Shown piece by piece: positions 28,048-46,702 of a DNA stretch of 64,000 nt (the first letter of the stretch is position 1; each line of letters opens with the position of its first letter). The stretch spans positions 1,359,961 through 1,423,960 of the forward strand of contig JAXGZJ010000001.1 in NCBI GenBank assembly GCA_040771805.1, given 5' to 3'. Below the pieces are notes generated by a model. It saw only the letters and a list, made by a program, of their open reading frames with translations. It had not been told where the DNA came from and did not search any database. A program made the position numbers and the translations under genes. This DNA is from Methanofastidiosum sp. (GTDB lineage: Archaea > Methanobacteriota_B > Thermococci > Methanofastidiosales > Methanofastidiosaceae).

Positions 28048-28132
28048 TGCGGGGGCCGTGATTTGAACACGGGAACTCCTACGAGACAGGGTCCTAAGCC
28101 CTGCACCTTTGACCAGGCTCGGCAACCCCCGC
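28048..28132 (-). tRNA. tRNA-Leu (anticodon TAG), class II with a long variable arm. CCA is not encoded.
   Basis: The reverse complement folds as acceptor GCGGGGG/CCCCCGC, anticodon stem CAGGG/CCCUG with loop CUUAGGA, a long variable arm, and T-arm CCGUGUUCAAAUCACGG. Confidence 0.85.
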
Positions 28133-28254: not shown

Positions 28255-28755
28255 ATGGAACATTTAATGGCCGATAAGGCGAAAGATATTCTTGGGATAA
28301 TGAAGGTCTTTTCTATTGACCCTCTTGAAGTTAAAAATTGTAGTTTCCCGGGGCATAAAGGAAGGGATTCTGGGGATAGTAGTATTGGTTTTTTAGAATA
28401 TACTGATGATAAAAATATCTACACCATCCATTCTGTTCATTATTGTAGACAACACAGGAATATATCTATATTAGAAATACAAAAAAGATTAAAAGATAAA
28501 ATTAAAGGCATTACTGAAGATAAAGGCACAGTATTAATAACAAAAATTAAGATAGATCCTGAAAGCTTTCCAGAAAAAGATATTCTTGGTAAAAAGGTTA
28601 GTATTGAAGAAACTACTTCAATTCTTATTAACAAGGGTAATTTAGGATTTTTAATAAATATTTCTGAAGAATCAAAAAATATGACATTGAAGGAAGTTAT
28701 TGATAAAATAATGAATCTAGAAATTGAATTTGATATCGCTTGGGAGGAATTCTAA
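28255..28755 (+). CDS. Hypothetical protein
   Basis: 166 aa. It overlaps the pyk start by 16 nt, which suggests co-transcription. No motif recognised. Confidence 0.4.
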   Translation: MEHLMADKAKDILGIMKVFSIDPLEVKNCSFPGHKGRDSGDSSIGFLEYTDDKNIYTIHSVHYCRQHRNISILEIQKRLKDKIKGITEDKGTVLITKIKIDPESFPEKDILGKKVSIEETTSILINKGNLGFLINISEESKNMTLKEVIDKIMNLEIEFDIAWEEF

Positions 28756-30149
28756 ATTTGAAGAAAACTAAGATAATATGCACAATAGGGCCAAGTGTTT
28801 CAAATTATGAGATGATAGCAAAACTTGTTAACTCTGGAATGGATGTAGCAAGATTAAATTTCTCCCATGGCACCCACTCCGAACATCTCAAGGTGATAAA
28901 AACAATAAGGGAAGTATCTGAAGATACAAACAAAAGAGTGGGTATTCTGCTGGATACCAAAGGCCCCGATATTAGGATTGGAGAGTTCAACAATACAATC
29001 CGTATATTCACGGGACAGGAATATGTATTTTCTTCAAAAAAACAAAATGGTATTATCCAATTACAAAATGATATATCCCAATTTTTGAAATCTGGTGATA
29101 GAGTCTTAATTGATGACGGTACACTAATCTTTACGGTAGTTAAAATTGAAGATGGAAATATTTATCTCAAAGCATTGAATGAAGGATATCTTAGACAAAA
29201 GGTAAGTATAAACATACCTGGGGATGCATATTGTCCTTCCGCCGTTACTAAGAATGATATAGTTGACATCAAATTTGGAGTGAAGAATGATGTAGATTTC
29301 ATTGCACTGTCCTTTGCATCGACTAAAGAGGATATATTGAAAGCTAGAGAGTTAATAAATGGGGAACAATGGATTATATCAAAGGTAGAATCAAATTATG
29401 GAATAAAAAACATAAATGATTTAATAGAATATTCTGAAGGAATAATGGTTGCGAGAGGGGATTTAGGTGTTGAAATTGATCTTTCTAGAATCCCAAGCGT
29501 TCAAAGATCTATAATAGAAAAATGCAATGCCAAAGGTAGACCAGTCATAGTAGCAACTCAAATGTTAAACTCAATGATAGAAAATCCAAGGCCAACTAGG
29601 GCGGAAGTAGAGGATATAGCCAGTGCAATTTACAGTGGTGCTGATGCAGTTATGTTATCAGGTGAAACAGCAATTGGGAAATACCCGATTGAGAGTGTGG
29701 AAATGATGGTAAAAGTGGCCATTGAAACTGAGAAAGAACTTAAACCGAGAACGGATTATGGGCCATCTAAAAGAATTGCAGACGTGATATCTTCTCTTGT
29801 CGCTAAAGCCGTATTACTTTCTGAAGTTAAAGCAATAGTTACTTCAACTAGATCTGGGTATACTGCATGTATGGTGTCTCGACATAAACTGTCTGTACCC
29901 ACCTATGGTATGACAAACAATCCCGCAACTGCCAGAAAGCTCTCTTTAGTTTGGGGTATAAGAGAAGTGCATTTAAACAGAGAGAAAGAGGGGATTTCAG
30001 ACGGAGCCTTTCATGCTGCCAAATATTTAAAAAGTGAAGGATTACAAGATAGTGATCTTTTCATTTTTACAGCAGGAGTTAGTAATTCAAAAAAACAAAG
30101 AACTAATCTGCTAGAAATTAGAGAGATAGGAGAGGTCTTATCTTCTTGA
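28740..30149 (+). CDS. pyk: Pyruvate kinase
   Basis: 469 aa. It reads KTKIICTIGPSVSNYEMIAKLVNSGMDVARLNFSHG and carries MVARGDLGVEI. Confidence 0.85.
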   Translation: MGGILNLKKTKIICTIGPSVSNYEMIAKLVNSGMDVARLNFSHGTHSEHLKVIKTIREVSEDTNKRVGILLDTKGPDIRIGEFNNTIRIFTGQEYVFSSKKQNGIIQLQNDISQFLKSGDRVLIDDGTLIFTVVKIEDGNIYLKALNEGYLRQKVSINIPGDAYCPSAVTKNDIVDIKFGVKNDVDFIALSFASTKEDILKARELINGEQWIISKVESNYGIKNINDLIEYSEGIMVARGDLGVEIDLSRIPSVQRSIIEKCNAKGRPVIVATQMLNSMIENPRPTRAEVEDIASAIYSGADAVMLSGETAIGKYPIESVEMMVKVAIETEKELKPRTDYGPSKRIADVISSLVAKAVLLSEVKAIVTSTRSGYTACMVSRHKLSVPTYGMTNNPATARKLSLVWGIREVHLNREKEGISDGAFHAAKYLKSEGLQDSDLFIFTAGVSNSKKQRTNLLEIREIGEVLSS

Positions 30150-41283: not shown

Positions 41284-42396
41284 TTATAATTTTTCAAATC
41301 TTTTTTCAAGCTCCCTTAATACTTTTGGAAGTGTTGTATATTCCATATCTTCAGGGGGCAATCTATGGGGCTCAAATGGCCCATGCCGCCTCATATAGTC
41401 TGCAACTCTTTGTGCTTTTATCCTAGCATTGTCATATGCGGGGTCATCGAACAGATCGACAGGTCCAATTAGTTTTCCATTTGCTATTTGGAACCCTAAA
41501 GCAATGACTCTTGGTGGCCCGTCAAATCTTGTGCATACAGCATTTTTTTGACTTACAGGCATTATTGGTCCATTATGCGATCCTCTCATCCATCCTGCTA
41601 CTAAGTGTGGAAAAGCAAAAGGCTCAAGGACTTCACCTACTGCAGGGAGCCCCGATTGGGCCCTTACTAAAGCCACAGGATCATCTTTTCCTACATATTC
41701 TCCAGCAATTTTGTAAAGTTTCTCAGTGCTTATAGTTGCTACTGCCTCATCTGCGGATAATTTTCCTCCTTTCTTAGGGTACACTCTTTTTATTACATAT
41801 CTTGATTTGGCACCAATTAATGCGAGCATTTTGTAAAGTTCCTCAGGGCAATCCATAAACACTTTTTTACTATCGAATATGTCCCATATTTCAAATCTAA
41901 ATCCTGCCACAGCGTTAGGATCTATTACAAGGCCTATAGTATTAAATGGATCTGCAAACATCTTATATATGGGTAGATTAAAAGCTCCTGGATCTGTTTT
42001 ATCCATCATAAATGCAATTAATGGTTCTGCTTTCCTTTCTTCGAATTCTAGTTCTGCCACACCAGGGCCCATCCCTCTAACATTTCCACTGAAAGATTCT
42101 GCTAAAAGATCTTGGCCCGCACCATAAAGTTTCAGTTTTTTGGCCATTTCTGTTGCTTTTTCAAAAGTATCCCAAGCAAGGTGGTGAACTTCCAAACAAT
42201 CGACACCTTTTCTGTGTGTCATTATTAATTCTAAATCATCTCCACAGTTTGTAACGTGGAAATCAACTAGTAGTTTACCTTTTTCTTTTTCTAATTCTTT
42301 TTTAGCTGTTTGAATTAAATCAGGATGTACCAAAGCGTGGCCTGGCCATCCCCCAACATCTGCTTTAATAAGAGAAACTGTTATTTTTTCTCCCAT
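41284..42396 (-). CDS. fbp: Fructose-1,6-bisphosphate aldolase/phosphatase (class V FBPase)
   Basis: 370 aa. The N-terminus MGEKITVSLIKADVGGWPGH is characteristic of the archaeal bifunctional FBP aldolase/phosphatase. Confidence 0.85.
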   Translation of the reverse strand: MGEKITVSLIKADVGGWPGHALVHPDLIQTAKKELEKEKGKLLVDFHVTNCGDDLELIMTHRKGVDCLEVHHLAWDTFEKATEMAKKLKLYGAGQDLLAESFSGNVRGMGPGVAELEFEERKAEPLIAFMMDKTDPGAFNLPIYKMFADPFNTIGLVIDPNAVAGFRFEIWDIFDSKKVFMDCPEELYKMLALIGAKSRYVIKRVYPKKGGKLSADEAVATISTEKLYKIAGEYVGKDDPVALVRAQSGLPAVGEVLEPFAFPHLVAGWMRGSHNGPIMPVSQKNAVCTRFDGPPRVIALGFQIANGKLIGPVDLFDDPAYDNARIKAQRVADYMRRHGPFEPHRLPPEDMEYTTLPKVLRELEKRFEKL

Positions 42397-43005
42397 TTAA
42401 TCCTCCTCATCCTTTGATTTAAAATCATCAATTGTGAATGGAGGTTCCTCACCATCTTTAATCTGCCCTTTCGCTTTCATCATTTCTCTGGCAATGAGAT
42501 AATAAATAAGCGCTAAAGCTTTTTTACCTTTGTTATTTGTTGGTACAACTAAATCAACATTTGATAAGTAATTTTCAGAGTCACATAGGGCAACTACTGG
42601 TATTTTTGCAAGTCCCGCCTCTCTTAATATTTGATAATCTGCCCTTGGGTCTGTCAATATGACTACTTCAGGTTCAATAAAATCGTCACAGTTTGGATTT
42701 GTGAGAGATCCGGGTATGAATCTTTTGGTAATTGTTTTTGCCCCCGTTTTTTGACCGAAAGCCAATACAGGTTTGAATCCATAGATTCTTGATGATACCA
42801 CAAGGATTTTTTCTGGCTCAAATTTGGCAAGAAACTTTCCAACTTTTTCTATTTTCCTGTTTGTTTCATTTATGTCCAATATATAAAGACCATCTTGTCT
42901 TATCCTAAATATATACCTTTCCATATCTTTTGTTTTTTGGGTCGTTCCAATATGAATCCCTGATGCAAGGTATAAATCAAGGGGTACTAACATTTCATCA
43001 CTCAT
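42397..43005 (-). CDS. rps2: 30S ribosomal protein S2
   Basis: 202 aa. It reads LASGIHIGTTQKTKDMERYIFRIRQDGLYILDI. Confidence 0.85.
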   Translation of the reverse strand: MSDEMLVPLDLYLASGIHIGTTQKTKDMERYIFRIRQDGLYILDINETNRKIEKVGKFLAKFEPEKILVVSSRIYGFKPVLAFGQKTGAKTITKRFIPGSLTNPNCDDFIEPEVVILTDPRADYQILREAGLAKIPVVALCDSENYLSNVDLVVPTNNKGKKALALIYYLIAREMMKAKGQIKDGEEPPFTIDDFKSKDEED

Positions 43006-43604
43006 TAAATCTCCTCTCCTAAATATTCTTTAATTCTTATTAGTTCATTTATAATAGGAATATTTTCTTCTGTTATATCTAGGTACTTTAGATTAAATGC
43101 CAAGGCTAAATGGCAGATTCCTTCATCAACTGCAGAGATAATGCAATTATTATCCTCTTTTGAAGAAACATATATCTTTGATATCGTATCTAGATCAATT
43201 TTCTTAGGCCTATGTTTTTCCTTTAGTTCATTCAAATCTATATCAAATATTTTTTCTCCGATGGTTAGAAATGGCATTTGACCTTCGTAAATACCACCAA
43301 GATACCTAAAAAGGGGTAAGGAATAAAAGGAAGATGCTGCTTTAGCAGATGCCAAAGACAATACAAATCTTATTTGGTTATATGGCGTTATTTCACAAAG
43401 TAATTCATCTAATGATTTTTGTTCTATTGCATCCAATCCTACAAGTTCAGGCAAAACAACTTCCTCTATTTCGGAGATATCTCCTTCAAATGGTACGGAA
43501 GCTCTTCCAAAGCTTGAATTCGTATAGATATCTATCTCTACTATTTTCTTCTCTCGACCACTGTTGTAAATCATTCTTGCTCTTATATCCTCTATTACGG
43601 TCAA
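43005..43604 (-). CDS. Enolase N-terminal-domain-like protein (truncated enolase paralog, ~190-200 aa; lacks the TIM-barrel catalytic domain)
   Basis: Clear similarity to the enolase N-domain: IEDIRARMIYNSGREKKIVEIDIY...FGRASVP...FVLSLASAKAASSFYSLPLFRYLGG. The ORF stops after ~200 aa, directly abutting rps2. The start is probably TTG at 43602-43604 or ATG at 43572-43574. The track ORF's upstream extension overlaps tRNA-Pro. Confidence 0.5.
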   Translation of the reverse strand: MTVIEDIRARMIYNSGREKKIVEIDIYTNSSFGRASVPFEGDISEIEEVVLPELVGLDAIEQKSLDELLCEITPYNQIRFVLSLASAKAASSFYSLPLFRYLGGIYEGQMPFLTIGEKIFDIDLNELKEKHRPKKIDLDTISKIYVSSKEDNNCIISAVDEGICHLALAFNLKYLDITEENIPIINELIRIKEYLGEEI

Positions 43605-43631
43605 TCTTTCCTCTCCTTTTTCTATTTCCAA

Positions 43632-43709
43632 TGGTGGGACCGTCGGGATTTGAACCCGAGTTTCCACCACCCCAAGGTGAGAGGCTAGTCCAAGCTACCC
43701 CACGGTCCC
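43632..43709 (-). tRNA. tRNA-Pro (anticodon GGG). The 3' CCA is encoded.
   Basis: The reverse complement gives acceptor GGGACCG/CGGUCCC, anticodon stem UCACC/GGUGG with loop UUGGGGU, T-arm UCGGGUUCAAAUCCCGA, followed by A and CCA. Confidence 0.8.
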
Positions 43710-43744
43710 ATGTGAAATCAACTATAAACTATTAAAATATAAAA

Positions 43745-43939
43745 TTATATTTTATAGTCGAGCAATTCGTCTATGAGGTCAACATGGGTAAGAAGCATTC
43801 GTCTACAGCAATATCTTGTCAATCCCATGTCATCCAATATTTTTTCTGATAGTTCCCCTTTGCTTAACCTATCTAGGTATGGCTCATAAAGATGTCCAAT
43901 CACTTTTCCACAAGTAAAACATCTTACAGGGATTATCAA
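43745..43939 (-). CDS. rpoN: DNA-directed RNA polymerase subunit N (Rpb10 homolog)
   Basis: 64 aa. It begins [15 protein letters not shown]...YCCRRM. Confidence 0.85.
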
Positions 43940-45269: not shown

Positions 45270-46400
45270 CTATAGTTTTGATATTGGATTTAAAATTGGG
45301 GTAAGCTCAGTCTTATACCCTAAATCTTTTAATGCCATCTGTAAACATGCCACAGTGGAGATTATTTCTTTTTCAGTAATACTGCCCATATGGCCAATTC
45401 GTATTATCTTCCCTTTAAGATGATCTTGCCCGCCAGCTATGATTATATCATGCTTCTCTCTCATTAGTTTAATGAGTTCAAGGCCATCAATGCCTTCTGG
45501 AACTTTTATAGAAGTAACAGTATTCGAACATGTCTTTTCATCTTGTGGGAATAGTTCTAGGCCCAATGCTTTTGCAGCCTCTCTAGTGGCTTTAGCCAGA
45601 TTTTCATGCTTTTTAATCCAGTTTTCAAGGCCGTATTCATCGATGATGTCTAAAGCTTCTTTTAATCCATAGGTCATTGATACTGGTTGCGTAAATGGAG
45701 CTTTATATTTGTTATTTTTATATTTTTTAAGGCTAAGATAATAGCATGTTGCATCTGTTTTTTCAATTACATCCCATGCTTTTTGACTAATCGAAATAAA
45801 GCACATTCCTGGTGGTAGTCCAATACACTTTTGGCTGCCTGATGCACATAGGTCTATCCCCCAATTATCAACTTCAATATTGTCTCCTCCAAGGGAAGAA
45901 ATTGTATCTACTACCAAAAGAGCTTTAGTATTTCTTACAATTTTGCCTAGTTCTGCAACAGGATTTCTAACTCCTGTTGAAGTTTCATTATGTACCATTG
46001 TTACGGCTTTAATGAACGGATCCTTTTCTAACGCTTTTTTCACGTCTTCTATATTTATTGGCGATCCCCATTCGTATTTTAGTTCAACTACTGTTCCCTT
46101 GTAGGCTTTTACTATATCCCTAAACCTCTCTCCAAATTTGCCTGAAGTAATACATAGGACCTTATCTCCCGGTTGTATGATATTAGCTATTGCAGCATCC
46201 ATTGCGGCAGTTCCAGACCCAGCCATTAAAAAAACATCATTATTTGTTTTGAATAATTTTTTCATTCTTTCTGATTGTTCCATAAAGAGTTTGTTGAATT
46301 CTTCGCCCCGATGAGGCATGATTTTCATTGACATTGCTCGAAATACCCTAGGATGTACAGGTATAGGGCCGGGTATCATAAGTAAAAAATCTTCATTCAT
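45270..46400 (-). CDS. Class V aminotransferase (serine-pyruvate / alanine-glyoxylate / phosphoserine aminotransferase-like)
   Basis: 376 aa. It reads LMIPGPIPVHPRVFRAM and carries the PLP-Lys region SGSQKCIGLPPG. Confidence 0.7.
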   Translation of the reverse strand: MNEDFLLMIPGPIPVHPRVFRAMSMKIMPHRGEEFNKLFMEQSERMKKLFKTNNDVFLMAGSGTAAMDAAIANIIQPGDKVLCITSGKFGERFRDIVKAYKGTVVELKYEWGSPINIEDVKKALEKDPFIKAVTMVHNETSTGVRNPVAELGKIVRNTKALLVVDTISSLGGDNIEVDNWGIDLCASGSQKCIGLPPGMCFISISQKAWDVIEKTDATCYYLSLKKYKNNKYKAPFTQPVSMTYGLKEALDIIDEYGLENWIKKHENLAKATREAAKALGLELFPQDEKTCSNTVTSIKVPEGIDGLELIKLMREKHDIIIAGGQDHLKGKIIRIGHMGSITEKEIISTVACLQMALKDLGYKTELTPILNPISKL

Positions 46401-46507: not shown

Positions 46508-46702
46508 TCACATTATTTCTTTATGTGTCATTAGTCTTGTTGTGTATCCTGCAATGCGATTCAATAGTTTGTGTGTAGGTACGTCTATTAAATCTTTAAT
46601 TATTAATTTATTTTCTTCAAAGTCTTTTGTTAATTCGGCTCTGTGTTTTTCAACTAATTGTCTTGAAATTCTTTTTAAGAACGATGGCCTAATTCTTCCC
46701 AA
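46508..46702 (-). CDS. rps17e: 30S ribosomal protein S17e
   Basis: 64 aa. It begins MGRIRPSFLKRISRQLVEKHRAELTKDFEENK...KLLNRIAGYTTRLM. Confidence 0.8.
   Translation of the reverse strand: MGRIRPSFLKRISRQLVEKHRAELTKDFEENKLIIKDLIDVPTHKLLNRIAGYTTRLMTHKEIM

Follow-up and report, generated by a model that had tools for sequence, protein, structure and literature searches.

Enolase has been noted for more than 20 years as an odd, conserved resident of the archaeal gene cluster that encodes ribosomal proteins and RNA polymerase subunits, and a second, non-metabolic role for the archaeal protein has, to our knowledge, been proposed but never demonstrated. A 64,000-nucleotide stretch of the Methanofastidiosum sp. 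genome (GenBank assembly GCA_040771805.1, contig JAXGZJ010000001.1, positions 1,359,961 to 1,423,960 of the forward strand; hereafter the window, with all coordinates counted from its first letter) raises the question of this second role again, as it carries, directly in front of the gene for ribosomal protein S2 (rps2), an enolase-like gene of only 199 codons, which we call enoL. What can such a gene still encode, is it a working gene at all, and how does it relate to the tRNA-Pro gene beside it and to the RNA polymerase gene rpoK that is absent from the slot? The analyses described here point to an enolase derivative that has lost its active site through two internal deletions and appears to be maintained by purifying selection as a small non-catalytic protein.

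According to Makarova, Wolf and Koonin (2015), who name arCOG01169 and arCOG01170 for enolases, Thermococci and Methanococci have two enolase paralogues, and the copy still located beside Rpo6 and S2 in the superoperon is the fast-evolving one (PMC4390880). In their proposal this operon copy retained no more than an ancillary function in connection with ribosome biogenesis, the dispersed copy being the glycolytic enzyme (PMC4390880). We found no publication treating the Methanofastidiosa together with enolase.

Results

Homology to enolase is clearest in the first half of the enoL protein, which matches Pfam Enolase_N (PF03952) with 40.1 bits against a gathering score of 35 (E 5e-10), and a phmmer comparison with solved structures matched only enolases. 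These two results uphold the claim of a sequence-only reading of the window that the open reading frame (ORF) abutting rps2 aligns to the enolase N-terminal domain, and hhalign likewise placed residues 1-113 on this domain with 99.7% probability. The Pfam Enolase_C domain (PF00113) was not matched at E <= 1. The best NCBIfam match was PRK08350 (NF006223, 341 positions, titled 'hypothetical protein'), with 70.1 bits and its best stretch at profile positions 1-129, which falls short of the curated cut-off of 624 bits; a positive control, the Thermococcales-type protein P0029, reached 641 bits. The canonical eno model TIGR01060 gave 42.9 bits over residues 43-112 only, below its 300-bit cut-off. 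As both cut-offs are missed, the protein is a strongly reduced new variant rather than a member of either family.

The origin of the second half emerged from several alignments. Using the whole family, hhalign aligned the N-domain only, and the C-terminal mapping required a separate run on a sliced alignment, in which the C-terminal 87 alignment columns fell on residues 304-410 of a 418-amino-acid (aa) archaeal enolase (E 4e-5). The same tail was found independently by tblastn with residues 342-407 of P0034 and residues 295-332 of P0029, two MAFFT alignments (A3 and A5) agree with hhalign on the mapping, and phmmer weakly matched residues 180-196 to the C-terminal NQLLRIEEELG helix of solved enolases. 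These mappings place the last 65-90 residues of the enoL protein on the final part of the enolase barrel and on its C-terminal helix, with the pairs (enoL first) LDTIS/GTLTE, CIISAV-DEG/VSHRSGETED, ICHLALAF/IADLAVA and KYLDI/QIKTG, and with the C-terminal helix INELIRIKEYLG aligned to YNQLLRIEEELG of enolase. Two segments are missing from the interior, namely about 25 residues between VPFE and GDISEIEE, including the SGASTG catalytic loop (hhalign and alignment A5), and about 160-190 residues of the central barrel. Judged by these alignments, the enoL protein is an enolase derivative with two internal deletions, not the product of a 3' truncation. The sequence-only reading had held that the entire TIM barrel was missing and that the SGASTG-type motif was degenerate; neither description fits, as the end of the barrel is retained and the motif is deleted, leaving a gap of about 25 columns.

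In alignment A5, SGASTG, the GGxHA and QEF region, DEGG, the DxAAS and EDP metal ligands, SHRSGET and KTG are all absent or replaced, and the catalytic and metal columns hold gaps or non-equivalent residues, with SAV---DEG opposite SHRSGET and YLDI opposite IKTG. No catalytic or metal-binding motif is intact by this comparison, and the protein is, as read from its alignment, a catalytically dead enolase derivative.

A structural model generated by AlphaFold2 with an alignment that included longer relatives reached a predicted local distance difference test score (pLDDT) of 92.1 and a predicted template modelling score (pTM) of 0.90. Along the modelled chain, three N-terminal strands are followed by four helices, a pair of short strands and then a strand-helix unit repeated three times, and Foldseek superposed it on complete enolases from the N- to the C-terminus with TMq values of 0.70-0.78. 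The model would thus leave the protein with the N-domain, the C-terminal helix and a half-barrel composed of five strands, two from the beginning and three from the end of the barrel. On the DNA, residues ~1-105 correspond to the enolase N-terminal domain with strands beta1-beta3 and four helices (43290-43604, minus strand), and residues ~112-199 to the two short strands, a poorly conserved linker, the last barrel beta/alpha units and the C-terminal helix (43008-43271, minus strand).

The enolase dimer of Staphylococcus aureus is built from beta1-beta3, alpha5 and alpha12 (PMC4667285). Of these elements the enoL protein, judged by its alignment, retains beta1-beta3 and the alpha12-equivalent helix and has lost alpha5. 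This C-terminal helix is the most conserved segment of the protein, with 7 of its 16 positions invariant across three lineages, as against 2 of 28 in the linker; the linker and the half-barrel are the least conserved parts (7-14% invariant positions). Within the thirteen-member family alignment (A1), the invariant residues of the C-terminal half are D121, LDT 138-140, D151, G162 and H165, and D121, LDT, G162 and H165 are still invariant once the homologues P0027 and P0028 are added. The retention of beta1-beta3, together with the best-conserved alpha12-equivalent helix, would favour a probably dimeric protein with a binding or scaffold role.

The longest ORF opens at GTG 43670, inside the tRNA-Pro gene, and reads through the tRNA, which confirms that the upstream extension, already doubted in the sequence-only reading, is an annotation error. 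Public gene calls of 206-221 aa (P0001-P0006, P0009 and P0013) make the same upstream-start error; starting inside or upstream of the tRNA gene, these calls are, by their sequence, artefacts, and the public annotations ('hypothetical protein', 206-221 aa) need correction. The start supported by the comparison of orthologues is TTG at 43604-43602, because the family alignment opens at this codon with (M/L)TVIEDIRAR, orthologues have TTG, GTG or ATG at the identical codon, a Shine-Dalgarno-like GGAGAGG, read from the sequence and functional by inference, lies 6-12 nucleotides (nt) upstream (43610-43616, minus strand), and the residues that follow (TVIEDIRAR) align with enolase strand beta1. A start at the internal ATG 43574 would delete the conserved beta1 strand. 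From TTG the gene extends over 199 codons plus TAA (43005-43604, minus strand), and its stop overlaps the ATG of rps2 by 1 base (TAATG), an arrangement that indicates a probable translational coupling of enoL to rps2.

Several lines of evidence bear on whether this is a functional gene. In pairwise comparisons, the ratio of non-synonymous to synonymous substitution rates (dN/dS) was 0.09-0.11 between enoL and its orthologues at loci L006 and L007, and 0.07 between the latter two, with values of 0.006-0.055 for the neighbours rps2, rps9 and rpoN. Proteins of 191-200 aa come from more than 13 independent assemblies, and a gene of this length recurs in dozens of independent contigs (NCBI, ENA, JGI and Logan). 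Near-identical proteins bear the name Candidatus Methanofastidiosa, and among GTDB loci the nearest are those of Methanofastidiosum methylothiophilum and of 'uncultured Thermococci' metagenome-assembled genomes. A hidden Markov model (HMM) search of 1.84 billion representative proteins returned only three 50%-identity clusters of the mini-enolase type (P0003; P0027, 191 aa; P0028, 197 aa), whose mutual identity is only about 40%, the next-ranked matches being the 341-aa PRK08350 type, other shortened forms and ordinary enolases. All three clusters share the gene order rps9-rpoN-tRNAPro(GGG)-enoL-rps2, and conservation extends to the start position, the Shine-Dalgarno sequence and the overlap of the enoL stop with the rps2 start. 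Because dN/dS is 0.07-0.11 and the same frame, length, start and slot recur in three lineages only ~40% identical, enoL is, on this comparative evidence, a functional gene under purifying selection, and these findings taken together speak strongly against both a pseudogene and an assembly artefact.

The slot itself contains a tRNA gene and no rpoK. Downstream of rpoN (RNA polymerase subunit N / Rpo10; 43745-43939, minus strand; Pfam RNA_pol_N, 108 bits) lies a tRNA-Pro(GGG) gene with encoded CCA (43632-43709, minus strand), detected by ARAGORN and by Rfam (RF00005, 47.7 bits). The gaps flanking it measure only 35 nt on the rpoN side and 27 nt on the enoL side, so that no rpoK can fit between rpoN and enoL. 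Tblastn with RpoK sequences found no match in the 64-kb window, and an HMM built from 8 RpoK genes of the fetched loci, which detects RpoK in the Thermococcales-type contig L085 and 8 other loci, found none in the window or in any Methanofastidiosa-type locus fetched. A protein-database search with an RpoK profile gave about 8000 matches, and none of the 120 matches listed was attributable to Methanofastidiosa. Two candidates were rejected: P0239 (L091-L093, 33-36% GC), considered as a Methanofastidiosa rpoK, belongs to Thermoplasmata as judged by its adjoining beta-CASP gene, and a fusion gene whose C-terminal half would derive from RpoK was dismissed, as the RpoK HMM gave no match to the enoL ORF even at E <= 10 with filters off. 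In the Thermoplasmata loci L091-L093, the rpoK gene is solitary, overlaps a convergent beta-CASP RNase gene with its 3' end and lies far from the rpoN-rps2 cluster, and is as such an example of rpoK encoded away from that cluster.

Gene order in other archaea bears on the history of the slot. The P0029 locus on L085 (55% GC) reads rps9-rpoN-tRNAPro(GGG)-rpoK-enoL(341 aa)-rps2-tRNALeu, from which the window differs only by the missing rpoK and a much smaller enoL. Among 67 loci of GTDB archaeal species with enough sequence past rpoN, the gene directly downstream of rpoN was tRNA-Pro in 22, an enolase homologue in 12 and rpoK in 7, and the full string rpoN-tRNAPro-rpoK-eno-rps2 was present in a single locus; tRNA-Pro follows rpoN in all relatives. 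The Thermococcales-type order marks tRNA-Pro as an original resident, and by this comparison tRNA-Pro(GGG) is the ancestral neighbour of rpoN, not a substitute for rpoK, which has left the slot, presumably through relocation. The absence of rpoK and the presence of a tRNA-Pro(GGG) with CCA, both reported in the sequence-only reading, thus stand, while its view that the tRNA occupies the place of rpoK does not; similarly, the order is altered insofar as rpoK is absent from the slot, and the order taken there as canonical is far from general. It is very unlikely that the mini-enolase makes up for rpoK having left this locus or been lost from it, because Rpo6/RpoK is near-universal and is encoded elsewhere in many archaea. 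In a Theionarchaea metagenome-assembled genome (JACVGW010000002.1, L010:6190-6338), a tRNA-Pro(GGG)-like sequence with an apparent ~27-nt intron after the anticodon, missed by ARAGORN in default mode, lies between rpoN and rps2, and this slot contains neither an enolase-like gene nor rpoK.

The remaining neighbourhood, all on the minus strand, consists upstream of rpl18e (45143-44775), rpl13 (44770-44345) and rps9 (44348-43944), and downstream of rps2 (42397-43005; Pfam Ribosomal_S2) and a fructose-1,6-bisphosphate (FBP) aldolase/phosphatase gene (41284-42396; Pfam FBPase_3, 612 bits). The latter begins on the base right after the rps2 stop codon and is probably co-transcribed with rps2, as this spacing suggests; the adjacency is kept in L006 and L007 and absent from the P0017 and P0028 lineages and from the Thermococcales-type locus. 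A TATA-box-like TTTATATT (43736-43743, minus strand), found by sequence inspection only, lies ~30 nt upstream of tRNA-Pro and may be a promoter for the tRNA and the genes downstream, although such a match is weak in an AT-rich genome (32% GC across the window). The rps13-rps4-rps11-rpoD block usually present upstream of rpl18e is missing from that position, which indicates that the superoperon is fragmented in Methanofastidiosum; in its place are an aminotransferase-like ORF (45270-46400, minus strand) and an S17e-like ORF (46508-46702, minus strand), both named from their translations only, and a sister lineage (L001) retains rps4-rps11-rpoD-tRNALeu-rpl18e. The plus-strand ORFs 43141-43281 and 43349-43735 are mechanical ones, antisense to a conserved gene and the tRNA. 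Elsewhere in the window, ARAGORN reports a tRNA-Leu(TAG) (28048-28132, minus strand) that on visual inspection resembles an ordinary class II tRNA, long variable arm included, and the Rfam scan gave no match at this position even at E <= 1, which looks like a quirk of tool or model, not biology.

Discussion

The explanation we favour is that enoL derives from the enolase copy seated between rpoN/rpoK and rps2 in the archaeal ribosomal-protein/RNA-polymerase operon, and that it would have become much smaller in the ancestry of Methanofastidiosales and two sister lineages. Of the two deletions, one would have taken the catalytic loop of the N-domain and the other the middle of the barrel, where the acid/base and metal-binding residues lie, leaving a protein presumably unable to convert 2-phosphoglycerate to phosphoenolpyruvate (PEP). 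The product, translated from TTG 43604 behind the putative Shine-Dalgarno sequence and coupled to rps2, would be a small, probably dimeric protein of structural or binding function, with a non-glycolytic role linked to gene expression. Taken as a whole, an operon-derived, non-catalytic mini-enolase with such a binding role is in our estimation a probable account, with good odds in its favour: homology, the deletions, the loss of catalytic motifs, purifying selection and synteny are its observed foundation, and dimerisation, partner binding and the cellular role are what we infer beyond them. Of the two alternatives left standing by the sequence-only reading, retention of a non-catalytic protein or a rearranged region, the first therefore survives in amended form, as the protein is enolase-derived and non-catalytic without being confined to the N-domain, and tRNA-Pro is no sign of rearrangement.

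A number of observations weigh against this account and have to be set beside it. When given the family alignment alone, AlphaFold was confident for the N-domain only, with a pLDDT <50 for the C-terminal half, and the alignment behind the better model included true enolases, which may bias that half toward an enolase-like arrangement. The placement of KIFDIDL is ambiguous, as hhalign assigns it to the GDDL strand and MAFFT to the vicinity of beta4/beta5. With alpha5, one of the three dimer elements, apparently deleted, dimerisation is not assured. The proposed link to the ribosome or RNA polymerase would follow from gene context and a published hypothesis, and the descent from a PRK08350-like paralogue from shared position and a modest score preference (70 vs 43 bits). 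Finally, tblastn with full-length enolases found no catalytic enolase in the 64-kb window.

The last point touches on metabolism, as the window also holds a pyruvate kinase ORF (28740-30149, plus strand), named from its translation. Together with the FBP aldolase/phosphatase gene, it suggests a PEP-linked or gluconeogenic metabolism in which a real enolase is needed, and this enzyme would be encoded elsewhere in the genome. Such an enzyme is the premise of the main rival explanation, under which the mini-enolase is a regulatory pseudo-subunit that forms a heterodimer with catalytic enolase, modulating it or tethering it to the translation or transcription machinery. The retention of beta1-beta3 and of the alpha12-equivalent helix, the best-conserved segment, speaks for this rival, but no catalytic partner lies in the window, the alpha5 interface element is missing, and hetero- and homodimerisation are indistinguishable on the evidence; we regard it as an unlikely explanation, albeit the most serious competitor. 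Less probable still is that the half-barrel left behind has evolved a new function, either in binding a small molecule or as an enzyme. Enolase-superfamily members often change chemistry, and the invariant polar residues of the C-terminal half listed above could serve such a function, but every known metal ligand and acid/base residue has disappeared, conservation is lowest in the linker and half-barrel, and we know of no precedent for a five-stranded open sheet as an enolase-superfamily active site.

A decaying pseudogene, that is, a functionless enolase remnant left after deletion, would explain the loss of over half of the ancestral protein together with every catalytic motif, and a non-synonymous rate ~4x that of the neighbours; the low dN/dS, the intact frame of the same length in three lineages ~40% identical, the conserved start position, Shine-Dalgarno sequence and rps2 overlap, and the confident predicted fold make it highly improbable. 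An assembly or sequencing artefact (a frameshift or collapsed region) of a full-length enolase, for which nothing specific speaks beyond the metagenome-type source of the genome, where such errors occur, and which the sequence-only reading had already judged unlikely, is excluded for practical purposes, as the stop codon overlaps the rps2 start and leaves no room for a full-length gene, and the same gene recurs in independent assemblies and dozens of independent contigs.

If an operon-derived, non-catalytic mini-enolase is indeed the right description, its significance lies in what it says about the larger operon enolases. An enolase free of an active site, under purifying selection and coupled to rps2, is a strong argument for a non-catalytic function, and it narrows the search for that function to about 200 residues comprising the N-domain, the last barrel units and the C-terminal helix. 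We further raise, as a tentative possibility that may well prove wrong, that the mini-enolase is the minimal module of the non-glycolytic function of the operon enolase, a partner-binding dimer, built of the N-domain, the terminal half-barrel and the C-terminal helix, that acts on S2 or small-subunit assembly, or on RNA polymerase. Were this true, evolution would already have performed the deletion analysis, and the module would be directly usable to fish for the partner.

Comparison with known systems

One case of a non-glycolytic enolase is that of the bacterial RNA degradosome, and structures of Escherichia coli enolase with RNase E (PDB 2FYM and 5OHG) place the partner peptide at the enolase dimer interface. 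This is a precedent for a role linked to RNA metabolism, and the mini-enolase retains beta1-beta3 and alpha12 of that interface; we know, however, of no archaeal partner, and the degradosome enolase is a fully active enzyme, so that the analogy serves as a lead only. Canonical enolases (TIGR01060; PF03952 and PF00113) share with the enoL protein the homologous N-domain, the C-terminal beta/alpha units and helix, and their predicted arrangement. They are larger (~420-430 aa vs 199 aa), and the enoL protein has none of their catalytic loop, general acid/base residues, three metal ligands or phosphate-binding HRS and K residues.

The closest counterpart is the PRK08350 type of Thermococcales, a diverged and catalytically dead paralogue that represents the accelerated in-situ branch of Makarova et al. 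It occupies the same slot upstream of rps2 and downstream of rpoN-tRNAPro, likewise has no SGASTG, SHRSGET or KTG, and ends in the same C-terminal NELIRI(A/K)E helix. Unlike the enoL protein, it has a full-size barrel (341 aa) with a weak match to Pfam Enolase_C, and its gene is preceded by rpoK; the enoL protein falls 142 aa short of it and does not match Enolase_C. As far as its sequence allows such a judgement, enoL fits the picture drawn by Makarova et al., in an extreme form. A non-glycolytic copy of enolase in the operon is thus already known, and what is new is the extreme 199-aa form from which the whole active site is gone.

The HMM search that returned the three clusters also yielded shortened enolases of 220-270 aa of bacterial type (P0032, P0045, P0035, P0137, P0051 and P0082), for which we know of no published description. 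As in the enoL protein, the middle of the barrel is deleted and the N-domain is joined to a GT(L/I)(S/T)E ... ADLAVA ... N(E/R)L(V/L)RIEE tail; in contrast to it, several keep more of the loop region. The neighbourhoods of two of the six were examined and look bacterial and unrelated to the enoL slot, with P0032 (L088:1679-2401) adjoining thioredoxin and ferredoxin-thioredoxin-reductase-like genes and P0045 (L090:2094-2813) adjoining RecX. P0032 scores higher to canonical eno than to PRK08350, and this closeness to the canonical family argues for an independent, convergent reduction. By this evidence the truncated enolase architecture has, it appears, arisen more than once, and the independent bacterial cases suggest that the N-domain, the end of the barrel and the C-terminal helix together form a stable, reusable sub-structure.

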